Below are positions 7,990 to 37,229 of a stretch of 64,000 bases of DNA, piece after piece. Each line of letters opens with the position of its first letter. Positions within the stretch are counted from its first letter, which is position 1. The notes under the pieces are model-generated. The model saw only the letters and a program-made list of their open reading frames with translations, searched no databases and was not told the origin of the DNA. Source of the DNA: Escherichia virus TH57. The translations under genes were made by a program, and so were the position numbers. The stretch lies in sequence record MT446422.1, one strand, 5' to 3'.

Positions 7990-9732
7990 TTAGCCAATGT
8001 CAATCCTCGAACCATCAATAGTATATTGACCAGATGCAATTGAACTCATTGTTGACATTGTTTCGGACCAATTGCCAGCCACGGTCATATCAACGTTTCC
8101 ATTAACAGACCATTTGACATTACCATTTACCGTATAATCATGGTTACCTTCGACAAGAGTTTTTGCATCACCTTTAACAGTTATTTCAGCATTACCTTCG
8201 ACAAGAATACTTACATTACCTTTGACGATAATTGTACCATCACCTTCGATAGTTTTGGTTTCATTCCCTCTGATATGAATACTTTCGTTTCCATCGGTCT
8301 GGCGACGAACGTTAGCCATATTGTAATAGGTTTCATCACCGCCAACGTTGACTTTATTATTACCACCAACATAAGTACTCGAATCGCCCTGGGTCATATA
8401 ATAACCATCAGCCACAGTCTTCGAAGTTTTACGGCCATCTGGTGCAACTTCCTCATAGGACCCGGTTGGGTGAATCAGTCGATAACGTTCTTGCCCGGGT
8501 GTATTATCGAATTCCTGAATATGACCGCCTTCAGTTTGCATTGTCTGCACGTAAGGATATTCACCCTTGTAACTTGATTCTGGTTCTTTAAATAGAATCC
8601 TCGTATCTTCTGGAGTCCACGGGTCGGCCGGGTCAGAATTTGTAGGGGCTGCAAAGGTTTGAATCATCCTATAAGAACGGCCATTAAATTCTCTTTCTTT
8701 AGGGGCCATAATACCATATGATTCCATATTACCGGTAAGGATAATCATTGATACCCTTGATGCACGCCCTTTAGTTTGGTTAAACCATACTGAATTGCGA
8801 GCTTCCTCAAATGCCTTCTTATAATCGCCTATTAACATTGCACTAAGCATTCCACGGAATTTAGCCAATCCACCTAATCCCATTTGGAAAGCCATGTTTT
8901 CAAGAGCCATTTGTCTCGAACGGTTTTCTTTATTGTAAACCGGACCTACAACACTATGCTTGCCTATATCGTTTTGGACTTTTTTAAGGTCTTCCTGGAA
9001 TAACTTAGAAGCCTCGTCCATTGATATTGCACCAGGGTTACCTTTAACTTCACGGCCTATTTGATTAGATAATATTTTGTTTATCTGATTCATATCTCTA
9101 ATAGGTTGTGGTGCAATTAAGTGCCCTATACCTATAGTAGGATAACCCTCGGTGTCCCAATATACTTTCAAACGAAGACCTTCATCACGGTGAAGCATAT
9201 TTTCAATTGTGAAATTAGGGTTATCATCTGGTTTAACCTGACTCAAATCAAGACCATCCGGGTTAATACCCAAATCAAGGTTTGCATCTTGTATTACGTT
9301 CGAAGTGGCACCATAACCGACTTCGCCTCCACGGTTAAGCGCAGCAGCATCATTACCTACATAAAGCGGATATTGCCCGGTGGGGTCAGAGAAACCTTCG
9401 TTAGGATTTGCTTTTTGTCTTGAGGCTGAACCATATGTGCCAATGACAAGACCGTTGAGCTTCCACTTGTCTAAAAAGTGACCATACACTTGGGTTCCCG
9501 GGACCATACCAGTCATGGCAGTTTGAATTCCAGAAACCGATGCAGATGATGTTGGCATCAATACTGACATCCAAGGAAGGTCTTCAGTTCTGATACCTTT
9601 TACTGGCCCTTGTGCTTTCTCATATGGATGCATACCCCATACGCGAACACGTACACGACCTTGTTGAAGTGGGTCCATTCGGTCTTCAACAACCCCGACG
9701 AACCAACTTACATTATCTGACATATTAATCAT
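7990..9732 (-). CDS. 5: baseplate hub / cell-puncturing protein gp5 with lysozyme domain
   Basis: 580 aa; internal T4-lysozyme-like segment NMLHRDEGLRLKVYWDTEGYPTIGIGHL; C-terminal beta-helix-like VxGxxxVxV repeats; synteny 53-5. Confidence 0.9.
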   Translation of the reverse strand: MINMSDNVSWFVGVVEDRMDPLQQGRVRVRVWGMHPYEKAQGPVKGIRTEDLPWMSVLMPTSSASVSGIQTAMTGMVPGTQVYGHFLDKWKLNGLVIGTYGSASRQKANPNEGFSDPTGQYPLYVGNDAAALNRGGEVGYGATSNVIQDANLDLGINPDGLDLSQVKPDDNPNFTIENMLHRDEGLRLKVYWDTEGYPTIGIGHLIAPQPIRDMNQINKILSNQIGREVKGNPGAISMDEASKLFQEDLKKVQNDIGKHSVVGPVYNKENRSRQMALENMAFQMGLGGLAKFRGMLSAMLIGDYKKAFEEARNSVWFNQTKGRASRVSMIILTGNMESYGIMAPKEREFNGRSYRMIQTFAAPTNSDPADPWTPEDTRILFKEPESSYKGEYPYVQTMQTEGGHIQEFDNTPGQERYRLIHPTGSYEEVAPDGRKTSKTVADGYYMTQGDSSTYVGGNNKVNVGGDETYYNMANVRRQTDGNESIHIRGNETKTIEGDGTIIVKGNVSILVEGNAEITVKGDAKTLVEGNHDYTVNGNVKWSVNGNVDMTVAGNWSETMSTMSSIASGQYTIDGSRIDIG

Positions 9733-16485: not shown

Positions 16486-16560
16486 GGCCCTTTAGCTCAA
16501 TGGGAGAGCTGTCAGCTCATAACTGATAGGTAGCTGGATCGAAACCAGCAAGGGCCACCA
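16486..16560 (+). tRNA. tRNA with CAT anticodon (Met, or Ile if lysidine-modified), CCA encoded
   Basis: Manual cloverleaf: acceptor GGCCCTT/AAGGGCC, D-stem GCTC/GAGC, anticodon loop CTCATAA, T-arm GCTGG-ATCGAAA-CCAGC, 3' ACCA. Confidence 0.8.
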
Positions 16561-16564
16561 AACG

Positions 16565-16641
16565 CGGGGTGTAGCTCAATTGTATAGAGCAACGGTCTTC
16601 TAAACCGTAGGTTGTGGGTTAGAATCCCACCACCCCGACCA
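16565..16641 (+). tRNA. tRNA-Arg (anticodon TCT), CCA encoded
   Basis: Manual cloverleaf: acceptor CGGGGTG/CACCCCG, D-stem GCTC/GAGC, anticodon stem ACGGT/ACCGT with loop CTTCTAA, T-arm GTGGG-TTAGAAT-CCCAC, 3' ACCA. Confidence 0.85.
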
Positions 16642-26068: not shown

Positions 26069-26560
26069 ATGAATATATTCGAAATGTTACGCATAGATGA
26101 AGGTTGTAAGTTGGATTTGTACCGTGACACCGAAGGCTTTTGGACCATCGGCATCGGTCAATTGATAACTAAGAACCCATCGAAAGACGTTGCTCGCGCT
26201 GAGCTGGACAAATTAATGGGTCGTGTTTGCAACGGTAGGATTACCCAGATTGAAGCTGAAACCTTGTTTAACCGTTCAGTGGAAAAAGCTAAAGCCGGAA
26301 TCTTGAAACATCCTGTCTTAAAACCTGTTTATGATGTACTGGATGAAGTTCGTCGTTGCGCACTCATTAATATGGTATTCCAAATGGGTGTAGCTGGTGT
26401 AGCTGGTTTTCCTAAGGGGCTGCGATTGCTCAAGGCTAAATCATGGGAAGCTGCTGCTAAGGAACTGGCTGACTCAAGATGGTATAAAGTCCAGACTCCG
26501 AACCGGGCCAAACGAGTTATTGAAACTTTCCGTACTGGAACTTTTGACGCATACAAATGA
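26069..26560 (+). CDS. e: endolysin (T4 lysozyme, gene e)
   Basis: [12 protein letters not shown]...DTEG..TIGIG...PNRAKRVI matches T4 lysozyme closely, with catalytic Glu11/Asp20/Thr26 positions conserved. Confidence 0.95.
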
Positions 26561-33304: not shown

Positions 33305-33677
33305 TGATTTCGTAACGGGTCGTGGGTCTGAGGTGGATTCATATATTGGGTGGTTGTTAGTCTCTTTGGCTTATTTTAAATCCGCCCATCTTGAAACCAA
33401 AAGTTACGCCCGCCATAAAGCTTATGATTTCTACTTCACAGAAATCCAAGGTCCACTCGACCAGTTCAGTGAGCAATGGTTAGGTTACAGCGGGAAACAA
33501 TACAAAGCTGCATTACCGTCCGCCTCGGACTTGCCGAAAGATACAATTTTGTTTTTAGATGAAATGATTAAAAGCTCGGAAAGAGTCTATAAAGTTGTAC
33601 CCAAGGCTATTCAATCGACTCTGGACGATATCGTTGGAGTTTTCTTTCAGACTAAGTATCTGTTAACATTAGAGTAA
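33294..33677 (+). CDS. hypothetical protein
   Basis: 127 aa ORF followed by a terminator. Confidence 0.5.
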   Translation: MKFDDFVTGRGSEVDSYIGWLLVSLAYFKSAHLETKSYARHKAYDFYFTEIQGPLDQFSEQWLGYSGKQYKAALPSASDLPKDTILFLDEMIKSSERVYKVVPKAIQSTLDDIVGVFFQTKYLLTLE

Positions 33678-33680
33678 TTC

Positions 33681-33710
33681 AAAAGGTCTGCCTTCGGGTG
33701 GACCTTTTTT
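33681..33710 (+). terminator. rho-independent terminator
   Basis: AAAAGGTC...GACCTTTT stem with TTCG loop region, followed by TTTTTT. Confidence 0.6.
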
Positions 33711-33778
33711 CATTTAGGGGGTTTACATCCTCATCAAAAGGGTGTACTATTATCCCATCAACTACTGAGGAGAACACA

Positions 33779-33982
33779 ATGAGAATTAAAAATATCAAGA
33801 TTGATGCAGTTAATACTGGTGATGAGGTTGTTATCTATCTTAATGATTATGCAATCTTTATGGACAGTGCCACTGATGAAGAAATGGTTGAACTCTTACA
33901 GAAAGCTCCATTTGAACTGTGTGAAGAAGATGCTACCCATCTTTCATCAGCAATTTTCTCATTATCATATGTGGTGGAATAA
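33779..33982 (+). CDS. hypothetical protein
   Basis: ORF track 33698; ATG at 33779 after promoter cassette and GAGGAG. Confidence 0.5.
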   Translation: MRIKNIKIDAVNTGDEVVIYLNDYAIFMDSATDEEMVELLQKAPFELCEEDATHLSSAIFSLSYVVE

Positions 33983-34218
33983 TGAAACTTACAAATACCA
34001 TGGTTTCATTGGAATATGAAACCAATAATCATATTCTTGAAATTAAGATATTTGATGACGGAAGCATATTTGCTGATTACCGCGGATATAGAATTCGCCT
34101 GGAAAAGGAACAGCTTAAAGATGTTGAGCTTTTTAAAGAAACATTAAAAAGTTGTGGGTGTAAACTGAAAAATACTCAAGTCCAAGAATTAATTTCTACC
34201 ATCAACAAATACTGGTGA
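33982..34218 (+). CDS. hypothetical protein
   Basis: 78 aa, ATGA coupling. Confidence 0.45.
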   Translation: MKLTNTMVSLEYETNNHILEIKIFDDGSIFADYRGYRIRLEKEQLKDVELFKETLKSCGCKLKNTQVQELISTINKYW

Positions 34219-34222
34219 TATT

Positions 34223-34405
34223 ATGTTAACTACTGAACAAATTGAAAAAATTATTAAACTCGCCTGGCATATTGAAAATGCATCTAATGACCTGGCAGTG
34301 GAATTATGTGAAGGCTATTCATATTCTGGAATAGAACAGTGTAAGCGTGATTTGAATAGTTCTAAAGCTAATTTGGTTGAATATCTGAATGGGTTGAAAG
34401 CATAA
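34223..34405 (+). CDS. hypothetical protein
   Basis: 60 aa ORF. Confidence 0.4.
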   Translation: MLTTEQIEKIIKLAWHIENASNDLAVELCEGYSYSGIEQCKRDLNSSKANLVEYLNGLKA

Positions 34406-34662
34406 TGGCTGTTGGATTTGCAAAAGATGGCGCTGAACAGTTAGAGATGGAAGCGGTTGTACAAGCCGCTATCACCCATGCGAGAGCACAGGTTGCAGTT
34501 GAAAGGGAGTCTGCTGAATTCTGTTTTGACTGCGACGAAAAAATTCCTGAAGCGCGGAGACAAGCGATTAAGGGTGTGATATATTGTGTTGGTTGTCAAT
34601 CAATGCATGATGAAATTTTTAAACGTGAGCCACGAAACTGTTGGCACAGGAGCATGAGATGA
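34405..34662 (+). CDS. DksA/TraR-type C4 zinc-finger protein
   Basis: CFDCDEKIPEARRQAIKGVIYCVGCQ is the CxxC-x17-CxxC TraR/DksA signature. Confidence 0.65.
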   Translation: MAVGFAKDGAEQLEMEAVVQAAITHARAQVAVERESAEFCFDCDEKIPEARRQAIKGVIYCVGCQSMHDEIFKREPRNCWHRSMR

Positions 34663-34753
34663 TTTACTATCTTGAACCTTGGGCTTGGTTAATAATGGCT
34701 GTAGGGCCTGTTTTAATTGGTTTATTCTTTTCATGGTTAGCGAGGAAACTGTA

Positions 34754-34969
34754 ATGTTATATGACCCTAGTGGTAATTCTGAAAATGGTGTGATTGTTCT
34801 GGAGCCTGAGCATCCAGTTGGTGACGTATACCGCCCGGTTGAAGTGTGCGAATGTAATTTTGTTAAAGGTAATACTGGTGGTATTTCCATTGAGCAAGAT
34901 GATGATGTTATTTACCTGGATGCAAGCCAAGTAGAAGCGCTTTATAGTATTTTAAAACACAACCGGTGA
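34754..34969 (+). CDS. hypothetical protein
   Basis: ORF track 34679; ATG at 34754. Confidence 0.4.
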   Translation: MLYDPSGNSENGVIVLEPEHPVGDVYRPVEVCECNFVKGNTGGISIEQDDDVIYLDASQVEALYSILKHNR

Positions 34970-35167
34970 TTTATGAAAACTAAAGAAAAGCATTTAAAGC
35001 TTGAAGAGCTTATCGAGGCCTTATGCAGGTACAGTTGCTAGATTCGAAACAGCATTTTGTCACCAATACTCGGTTGATGATTGTACTAGGCTTTCTAAAG
35101 AAGAAGATAATGCCCTTAAAGAATTGCTAAATTTTATTAAACAAAATGTGAAATGAGGAAATAGAAA

Positions 35168-35728
35168 ATGATTATTGAAACGACTGAATTGTTTGGCGAA
35201 CTGACCGCTGAAGTAGTTAATAACGCAATTGAGCTTTGTCAAGAAGACGATAAAATCGTACTGACTATCGCTGATATTAAACCGCTTTATGATTTAATGG
35301 TTTTGGATAGACACGATTATCTTAATGGTCGTGCTAGTGCTCCTATTGATATCAATGATGATATGTATGCCTATATCTATAAAAATGAAGCTGGGTTTAA
35401 TCTGGAAAATGGTATTGAATGTCTGAGCATCAGCGATTCTGATAAATTCTTTGATTGTATTTTCAAACTCTTTCAGGAAGAATGTAAACCAGAAGTTGAA
35501 TGGAAAGTCCCAGGACAAGACGCACTGATTCGTTCTAGCGAAACGTTTGAAGGCGATGAAGAGGAATTAGATTATAACACTGAACTGACTGTGCATCAAC
35601 ATAACGGCCGTGACTTGTTGTCCATTGTCCAAAGACATGACGGCGAAAGTGAAGTAGTATTTACTAAGGACGAGCTAAAAGTTTTAGTCTCTTATCTGAA
35701 CTCTGTTATCCCAACTATGAACGCTTAA
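35168..35728 (+). CDS. acidic hypothetical protein
   Basis: 186 aa ORF with GAGGAAATAGAAA RBS region. Confidence 0.5.
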   Translation: MIIETTELFGELTAEVVNNAIELCQEDDKIVLTIADIKPLYDLMVLDRHDYLNGRASAPIDINDDMYAYIYKNEAGFNLENGIECLSISDSDKFFDCIFKLFQEECKPEVEWKVPGQDALIRSSETFEGDEEELDYNTELTVHQHNGRDLLSIVQRHDGESEVVFTKDELKVLVSYLNSVIPTMNA

Positions 35729-35738
35729 GGAAAATATT

Positions 35739-36191
35739 ATGATTATCAATACAAACTCATGGCACGCTCGTTTCCACGACCGTTTTTATGACCGCCATTC
35801 TCGACCACACTCTTTGTGTGCTTACTTTTGGAAAATTGTATGGGCCTGCTTTATTTGTTCTGTGCTTGCAGGTAGTACAATCTTCGCCTTATCTGCTGCA
35901 GGTGCTGGTATATTGGAGCAGTTCTTTGTATTAAGTATTCCTGTTGGTTTAGGGTTAGGGTTTATTTTAGGACTAGCTACAGTAGCTCTTATTCTGGCTG
36001 TAGCATTTGGTTTAATGTACGGTCTAATGAATTTATGGTCCTGGTACGATTTACATAAAGAAGAAAAAGAATGGAAACGTATTCAAGCTGAGCGTGAAGG
36101 CCGAGAAACTAAAGAAAACGTTTTCATTCAATATATCAAAGCTCGTAAATCTAAGATGTGTCCGGTAATCCATTTTGAGGCGAAGAAATGA
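35739..36191 (+). CDS. multi-pass membrane protein
   Basis: Several hydrophobic helices; translationally coupled (ATGA) to the downstream nucleotidyltransferase-fold gene. Confidence 0.55.
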   Translation: MIINTNSWHARFHDRFYDRHSRPHSLCAYFWKIVWACFICSVLAGSTIFALSAAGAGILEQFFVLSIPVGLGLGFILGLATVALILAVAFGLMYGLMNLWSWYDLHKEEKEWKRIQAEREGRETKENVFIQYIKARKSKMCPVIHFEAKK

Positions 36192-37198
36192 GAACAGTTA
36201 TGAAAGGCTACTTCGGTAGCCATCTTTATGGAACAAGTACTCCTGAATCTGATGTCGATTTTAAGGAAATCTTTGTTCCACACCCACGTGATATTCTGTT
36301 AGGTACGGCTATGAACCATACCAACTTGAACACGAATAATACGGCATCCAAAAACACTAAAGACGATGTTGACCACGAGCTTTATAGTCTGAAATATTTC
36401 TTTAAACTGGCGGCTGAAGGCGAAACTGTTGCTCTGGACATGATTCACACTCCGGCTAACCTGGTAGTCAAATCCGATTTACCAGATGTATGGAAATTTA
36501 TCCAAGACAACCGTTCACGGTTCTATACAACTAACATGAAAGCCTATTTGGGGTATGTCCGTAAGCAAGCTTCAAAATATGGTGTTAAAGGTTCTAGACT
36601 GGCTGCTCTGCGTGGTGTACTGGCAATTGTTAACCAGATTCCTGAACAGTGGGTCGATTATCAAGAAGATGGTTCTGTTAAACAGCGTCGAACTAAGGTA
36701 GAAGATATTAAGCACCGACTCCCTGAAAACGAGTTCTGTGAATGGGTATTTCATAACCATGAGAAAACAGGTCCTCAAACGTTCTATACTGTCCTCGGTC
36801 GTAAATACCAAACCACTTTGTCGTTAATCGAGCTTAAGCAATCTCTGAATAAGCTTGATTCTGAATATGGTGAACGTGCTCGCAAGGCCGAAGCCAATGA
36901 AGGTATTGACTGGAAAGCTCTGAGCCACGCTTATCGTGCTGGATATCAGTTGAAGGAAATTTATATGACCGGTGACCTTCAATATCCTTTACGAACAGCC
37001 CCATTTATCCTTGAAATCAAACAAGGCCTACACGCTTTTAAAGATGTACAAGCTGAACTTGAAGCAATCGTCGATGAAGTCGAAACCAATGCCATCTGGG
37101 CGGCCAAGAACGGCATGCCAGACAAGGTAGACATGAAGTTCTGGGACAAGTTTGTTGAAGAGGTATATCTTGACAACCACAATTCCTATTATTGTTAA
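36188..37198 (+). CDS. Pol-beta-superfamily nucleotidyltransferase-fold protein
   Basis: N-terminal GS-x11-DxD motif (GSHLYGTSTPESDVDF) typical of the NTase fold; 336 aa. Confidence 0.55.
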   Translation: MRTVMKGYFGSHLYGTSTPESDVDFKEIFVPHPRDILLGTAMNHTNLNTNNTASKNTKDDVDHELYSLKYFFKLAAEGETVALDMIHTPANLVVKSDLPDVWKFIQDNRSRFYTTNMKAYLGYVRKQASKYGVKGSRLAALRGVLAIVNQIPEQWVDYQEDGSVKQRRTKVEDIKHRLPENEFCEWVFHNHEKTGPQTFYTVLGRKYQTTLSLIELKQSLNKLDSEYGERARKAEANEGIDWKALSHAYRAGYQLKEIYMTGDLQYPLRTAPFILEIKQGLHAFKDVQAELEAIVDEVETNAIWAAKNGMPDKVDMKFWDKFVEEVYLDNHNSYYC

Positions 37199-37204
37199 AT
37201 TCTA

Positions 37205-37229
37205 AGGACCCTTCGGGGTCCTTTTTTTA
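37205..37229 (+). terminator. rho-independent terminator
   Basis: AGGACCC-TTCG-GGGTCCT hairpin followed by TTTTTTT. Confidence 0.65.

Follow-up and report, generated by a model that had tools for sequence, protein, structure and literature searches.

The window analysed is a stretch of 64,000 nucleotides from Escherichia virus TH57 (sequence record MT446422.1). The locus is located between two genes on the + strand. On its 5′ side lies a DUF7189 gene (34754-34969, PF23819, PHROG 4844; 71 aa, Gaprivervirus type), always immediately upstream of the small gene described here, and on its 3′ side an intact y05I-like gene, also named 'MobD.1' (35168-35728, PF24449 and PF24448; 186 aa), which starts at ATG 35168 as the first-pass annotation had noted. 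The Shine-Dalgarno sequence of the y05I-like gene, GAGG at 35155-35158, overlaps the native stop codon of the small gene and is spaced 9 nt from the ATG. Between the two neighbours, an ORF of 22 aa, MKTKEKHLKLEELIEALCRYSC, extends on the + strand from ATG 34973 to a premature stop TAG at 35039-35041 (34973-35041). In the +1 frame, no stop codon occurs from 34998 until TGA 35154-35156; this frame reads ...SLSRPYAGTVARFETAFCHQYSVDDCTRLSKEEDNALKELLNFIKQNVK (up to this TGA also given as ...YAGTVARFETAFCHQYSVDDCTRLSKEEDNALKELLNFIKQNVK). The short ORF that ends after 22 codons and the coding-like continuation in another frame, both reported in the first pass, can thus be read directly in the sequence. 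Upstream of the DUF7189 gene, a hydrophobic micro-ORF of 31 codons, MIYYLEPWAWLIMAVGPVLIGLFFSWLARKL (34659-34754, +), separates it from a DksA-like gene and shares ATGA and TAATG start/stop overlaps with its neighbours; the micro-ORF is annotated in P479, CLB_P2, VR5 and SHP1 and omitted in SP18, dhaeg and VR20.

The two ORF pieces are the halves of one gene. In a multiple alignment with the intact CDS of CLB_P2 and dhaeg, the orthologous GGCC-TATGC becomes GGCCTTATGC in the window; one extra T in codon 17 (35021-35022, +) gives TT where all orthologs have a single T. The shifted frame reaches its stop 6 codons past the extra T, such that the 22-aa product has native residues 1-16 and out-of-frame residues 17-22 (LCRYSC). 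When the window copy is aligned with the intact CDS (183 nt) of CLB_P2, dhaeg and NC-G, there is one 1-nt gap and no other indel. Together, the two pieces align end to end with the annotated Dhakavirus CDS of 183 nt across one 1-nt gap, far beyond what chance would give. In silico deletion of one T followed by translation gives a protein of 60 aa, MKTKEKHLKLEELIEAYAGTVARFETAFCHQYSVDDCTRLSKEEDNALKELLNFIKQNVK. The frameshift-disrupted copy of this 60-codon accessory gene, a member of PHROG 2758, occupies 34973-35156 (+, 184 nt including the stop), and its C-terminal remnant (35042-35156, +), comprising native codons 23-60 and the native stop TGA 35154-35156, is orphaned. The sole in-frame start for the remnant is TTG 35001, located inside the truncated ORF, and no Shine-Dalgarno-like sequence precedes it (34985-35000 read). 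Besides the extra T, the only window-specific change is the codon AAT at 35109-35111 (+; unique base at repaired position 138), which encodes Asn46 of the repaired protein; the orthologs all have Lys or Glu there. The alignment with orthologs therefore bears out the frameshifted small gene upstream of 35168 proposed in the first pass, and the locus is a single gene split by the insertion of one base, an ordinary kind of event.

The intact form belongs to a defined family. The query, an ortholog of CLB_P2 type that shares 97% identity with the repaired window protein, matches PHROG 2758 over residues 1-59 of 59 profile positions (E 9.5e-27, 93.9 bits). Membership of PHROG 2758 calls for an uninterrupted ORF of ~60 codons and the window copy stops after 22; it is a disrupted member of the family, a pseudogene. 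Residues 1-60 are recovered as an intact single tblastn piece in 24 of the 24 GenBank phage records with the gene, and the 187-nt query from the window matches 186 nt in nearly all of these records (183 nt in one). The 16 non-redundant orthologs have no gap at 35021/35022 and translate to 60 aa (59 aa in one unverified record). In a collection of 15 billion proteins, all distinct members of the two main clusters (22/22) are 60 aa long. The comparison with orthologous loci thus gave intact single-frame genes everywhere, the opposite of the shared two-frame arrangement that the first-pass annotation had named as counting against its reading. The mean dN/dS is ~0.14 (Nei-Gojobori, 66 pairs, average restricted to pairs with dS above 0.3), and the variable columns of the ortholog alignment fall at codon positions 1, 2 and 3 in the numbers 11, 6 and 25. 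By these measures the family is under purifying selection and its intact form is a real gene. The nearest relative is phage NC-G, with a DNA identity of 97.9% and 98% identity to the repaired protein; the repaired copy differs from NC-G by two synonymous changes and one non-synonymous change (K46N). The family is narrow, with three clusters at 90% identity. At 50% identity, an HMM search of 1.84 billion representatives found one family cluster; the other matches are long repetitive proteins and are spurious, and no functional homolog was found in this search.

AlphaFold2, run with an alignment of three sequences, predicts a hairpin of two helices (H3-31 and H34-58) at modest confidence (pLDDT 68). 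A Foldseek comparison of this model with the viral models of BFVD returned generic helical hairpins only (best E 0.9). Pfam DUF7438 scores 23.6 bits (E 6.9e-5), under the gathering cut-off of 25 bits, and the precomputed Pfam annotation of the intact orthologs is '-'. By hhalign, the probability of a match to DUF7438 is only 57.8% (E 1e-4, 55 aligned columns), and by BLASTP the protein shows 31% identity (E 0.009) to the window's own MobD.3-like gene (34223-34405). The evidence is weak but consistent, and the protein is possibly a distant MobD.3/DUF7438 paralog, with membership not established. The tandem copies of the MobD.3-like DUF7438 genes (~60 aa) vary among close Gaprivervirus genomes: three are found in TH54, two in some genomes and one in the window. 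Such loci lie at 34223-34405 in the window and at 591-1152 and 776-1152 in the related loci L028 and L024, respectively, and the paralogs share only ~23-26% identity.

The sequence around the site (1.4 kb) matches T4-like Straboviridae. Among the records, Gaprivervirus (P479, TH54, phage 212 and SP18) comes closest, with 93-97% identity in two pieces that cover only 87% of the query, whereas Dhakavirus (CLB_P2, dhaeg) matches end to end at ~84%. The part of the query that has no Gaprivervirus match is exactly the split gene. In P479, SP18 and VR20, the DUF7189 and y05I-like genes are 11 nt apart and the site is empty; in CLB_P2 the slot is filled by an annotated CDS of 183 nt, and in dhaeg the same ORF is present and unannotated. 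Alignment with the empty sites of P479 and SP18 defines a plug-in cassette at 34970-35156 (+), consisting of TTT, the gene and TGA, with a length of 187 nt here and 186 nt when intact. The cassette is bounded by a direct repeat of TGA (34968-34970 and 35154-35156). Whether the slot is filled or empty, GAGG, the ribosome-binding site of the y05I-like gene, shares bases with a stop codon; in the empty site the DUF7189 stop abuts GAGG. In the window, the spacer between this Shine-Dalgarno sequence and the ATG (35157-35167) reads GGAAATAGAAAATG; it is one base shorter in both parental types (GGAACAGAAAATG in Gaprivervirus, GGAACGGAAAATG in Dhakavirus). The 3′ junction of the cassette, ~140 nt from the frameshift, therefore has another length change of 1 nt.

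Dhakavirus genomes usually carry the cassette and almost no Gaprivervirus does, and the site is empty in 10 further contigs that encode an identical DUF7189 protein. Compared in steps of 50 nt, the window and P479 share 97-100% identity up to ~34950 and again from ~35200. Over the cassette, an identity of ~98% is instead found with Dhakavirus NC-G and ESCO10, and in the flanks these two phages reach only 50-85% identity to the window. Since the similarity of the cassette is discordant with that of its flanks, the data point to recent acquisition here rather than ancestral retention; for the same reason, an ancestral gene lost in the other Gaprivervirus is unlikely. A 72-kb metagenome scaffold (L036) combines an upstream flank of Gaprivervirus type (96.6% identity to the window) with an intact cassette of CLB_P2 type. 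A family member with 77% identity (P0003) follows DksA-like and DUF7189 genes in a different phage contig of 141 kb with another downstream gene, which suggests that the cassette travels together with DUF7189 as a linked pair. This locus (L020 3001-3183, Logan SRR24653453) is succeeded by a gene of 93 aa that has an NMN_transporter Pfam hit and is not y05I-like. The slot lies directly after the DUF7189 gene in CLB_P2, dhaeg, NC-G, ESCO10, VR5, the metagenome contigs and the unrelated backbone of L020. Judged from these arrangements, the cassette moves between backbones and does so linked to DUF7189.

Public annotations of the cassette region cannot be relied on. SHP1 (SHP1_062, L014 401-583) and C6 call both the 60-aa and the y05I-like protein 'thymidine kinase', several records name the NrdC.11-like RlaP nucleotidyltransferase 'thioredoxin', and small neighbouring ORFs of ESCO10 are labelled 'tail fibers protein', 'deoxycytidylate deaminase' and 'polynucleotide kinase'. 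Loci with doubtful labels also include L010 594-986 and L001/L002/L003, in which a cut CDS extends from ~2099-2280 to the end of the locus. Elsewhere in the window, two lysozyme-e-like genes are located at 8716-9207 (-) and 26069-26557 (+); the syntenic copy is 82% identical to gene e of VR20, and the divergent copy on the opposite strand is 36% identical (E 2.6e-26). Adjacent genes for tRNA-Met(CAT) and tRNA-Arg(TCT) occupy 16486-16641 (+), and the pair is also found in VR20.

The first-pass annotation had offered a decayed gene or a sequencing error, and the intact orthologs support this pair of readings; of the two, real mutation is favoured, though not proven. We regard it as probable that the accessory gene was recently inactivated and that the extra T is a true mutation. 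An error of sequencing or assembly is unlikely, although it is the likeliest of the alternatives: the phage would then have a single T and an intact gene of 60 codons, and the extra T would be a consensus indel. Single-base length changes are the commonest kind of consensus error, and the copy looks otherwise healthy, with three substitutions relative to NC-G. The context is, however, a TT dinucleotide rather than a long homopolymer. A run of two is minimal, and it specifically favours neither polymerase slippage in vivo nor homopolymer error of the instrument. The accuracy of the consensus was assessed with all plus-strand ORFs of at least 40 aa from a syntenic 49.5-kb stretch of VR20 (n = 154) as tblastn probes. 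None of the 144 probes that match the window is split into two adjacent frames, and the scan flagged only a paralog match and short spurious ORFs; the window consensus is therefore not error-prone.

The extra T is also reproduced in a second assembly, which, like the ORF scan, indirectly favours a real mutation. The Logan k-mer assembly of run SRR11772948 holds a contig of 9.5 kb in which window 33668-37228 is matched at 100% identity, extra T, AAT codon and intergenic GGAAATAG included. Because another window protein is likewise found only in this run, the run comes from the same phage and the contig probably from the same reads. The contig rules out an artefact of the assembler, but a systematic error in the reads would be inherited by this sole corroborating assembly. 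The only other contigs with the frameshift allele come from the same run and are 100% identical; they are not an independent replicate. A literature search on SRR11772948 found no publication. Neither exact nor degenerate patterns of the frameshift junction were found in IMG/VR or the JGI metagenome contigs. The intact junction is absent from IMG/VR too, and both collections are uninformative on this point; a search for related loci yielded from IMG/VR just the genomes of VR5, IME341 and vB_EcoM_005, all known already, and nothing from the metagenomes. Across GenBank phage records, IMG/VR and JGI metagenome contigs, no second, independently sampled genome with the frameshift was found.

If the inactivation is real, as we consider probable, its history can be proposed as follows. 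A one-gene cassette of 186 nt, otherwise typical of Dhakavirus, would have entered the backbone of a Gaprivervirus-type T4-like coliphage, and duplication of a T at 35021/35022 would then have inactivated the gene. As there are only three substitutions relative to NC-G, the extra T probably arose after or around the arrival of the cassette. Ribosomes starting at ATG 34973 would translate 16 native and 6 out-of-frame codons and stop at TAG 35039-35041, leaving the last 44 native codons untranslated. The peptide of 22 residues would keep only half of helix 1, and the allele is presumably null. The loss appears to be tolerated and the gene dispensable, since most Gaprivervirus genomes do not have the cassette. 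Termination would now occur 127 nt before the y05I-like start and not on its Shine-Dalgarno sequence, so that any termination-reinitiation coupling would be lost; as GAGG 35155-35158 and its spacing are intact, y05I-like expression should nevertheless persist. A further proposal, that the frameshift is genuine and adaptive and that a cassette newly arrived from a Dhakavirus was knocked out because its small hairpin product, a distant MobD.3/DUF7438-like paralog, was redundant or harmful in the new genome, strikes us as improbable; if true, the locus would be a snapshot of plug-in gene acquisition followed by purging in T4-like phages.

Two further readings would make the split functional. According to the first, the locus holds two mini-genes, which yield the N-terminal peptide of 22 aa and/or a product of 51 aa from TTG 35001. 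Both ORFs exist mechanically, but the split arrangement is seen in one phage only and the predicted hairpin of the family needs both helices, H3-31 and H34-58. TTG 35001 moreover lies within the translated ORF of 22 codons with no Shine-Dalgarno-like sequence upstream, and the 51-aa product has no record as a called gene in the public protein collection. We give this reading very little weight. Less weight still is due to programmed or leaky +1 ribosomal frameshifting within 34998-35038, which would produce the full-length protein of 60 aa with 0-2 residues altered. The two frames overlap by ~40 nt that are stop-free in both, and the zero frame of the overlap has a rare AGG codon (35027-35029); AGG pausing provokes +1 shifts in E. 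coli. A shift site such as TGC-AGG-T (35024-35030), with the rare Arg codon AGG in the A site, can be proposed on this basis. However, the two-frame layout is absent from all orthologs (split in 0 of 16 non-redundant orthologs and in 0 of 22 cluster members), and as all of them are single-frame, nothing is conserved that could be 'programmed'. No known +1 motif of the CUU-UGA-C or CUU-AGG-C type is present in 34998-35041. Re-pairing of the P-site tRNA is impossible at GCC-U, UUA-U or UGC-A and likewise at the extra base (GCC-T-TAT), the downstream RNA folds no better than shuffled sequence (z = +0.63), and the phage's own tRNA-Arg(UCU) (16565-16641) should relieve hunger for AGG. With no split ortholog, motif or stimulatory RNA structure, a programmed +1 frameshift was rejected, and this option of the first-pass annotation falls away because every ortholog is intact and single-frame. 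Transcriptional slippage was rejected since the TT run is too short.

Overall, the locus shows nothing out of the ordinary: an ORFan that is dispensable and laterally mobile carries a single-base frameshift in a T4-like phage. Its annotation should read frameshifted pseudogene, or carry a flag for verification at read level, instead of giving two tiny ORFs or a recoding site. Beyond annotation it matters very little, and the broader point is only illustrative: gene-sized cassettes move between T4-like genera with the junction of stop codon and Shine-Dalgarno sequence of the next gene kept, and accessory phage genes can be lost by one single-base event.

Compared with known systems, the sites of prfB (CUU-UGA-C) and Ty1 (CUU-AGG-C) make the net +1 shift that the window would need, and an AGG is found in the window overlap. 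Unlike these sites, the window has no slippery P-site codon, internal Shine-Dalgarno sequence or structural stimulator, and its two-frame layout occurs in no ortholog, with single-frame copies everywhere else. The MobD.3/DUF7438 proteins resemble the cassette protein in their length of ~60 aa, the N-terminal M-x-T-x-E motif and the predicted helical hairpin, and the MobD.3 subgroup has the central C-x-x-Y...C pattern in common with it. Their genes, in one to three tandem copies, share its hyperplastic region and precede it by a few genes; the cassette protein, in contrast to DUF7438 members, scores under the Pfam cut-off and is at best a distant paralog. The likeness is closest to the Dhakavirus proteins of PHROG 2758 (CLB_P2 UNI73078.1, NC-G QBP35708.1 and VR5_095 AIZ01882.1), which are equal in length and 95-98% identical to the repaired window protein. 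Their genes share the slot of the window copy, separated from the upstream DUF7189 gene by 3 nt and from the downstream y05I-like gene by ~10 nt, whereas the +1 T frameshift at codon 17, the unique K46N and the Gaprivervirus-type backbone set the window copy apart. The hyperplastic regions of T4-like phages contain gene-sized 'plug-in' ORFs that are present or absent between genomes, part of the mosaicism of the T4 superfamily. As in these, the indel in the window is exactly one ORF, flanked by a short direct repeat (TGA) and with a similarity discordant with that of its flanks, and the cassette keeps the overlap between the stop codon and the Shine-Dalgarno sequence of the next gene. Nothing essential differs from this system; in the window, the transferred ORF is also broken.
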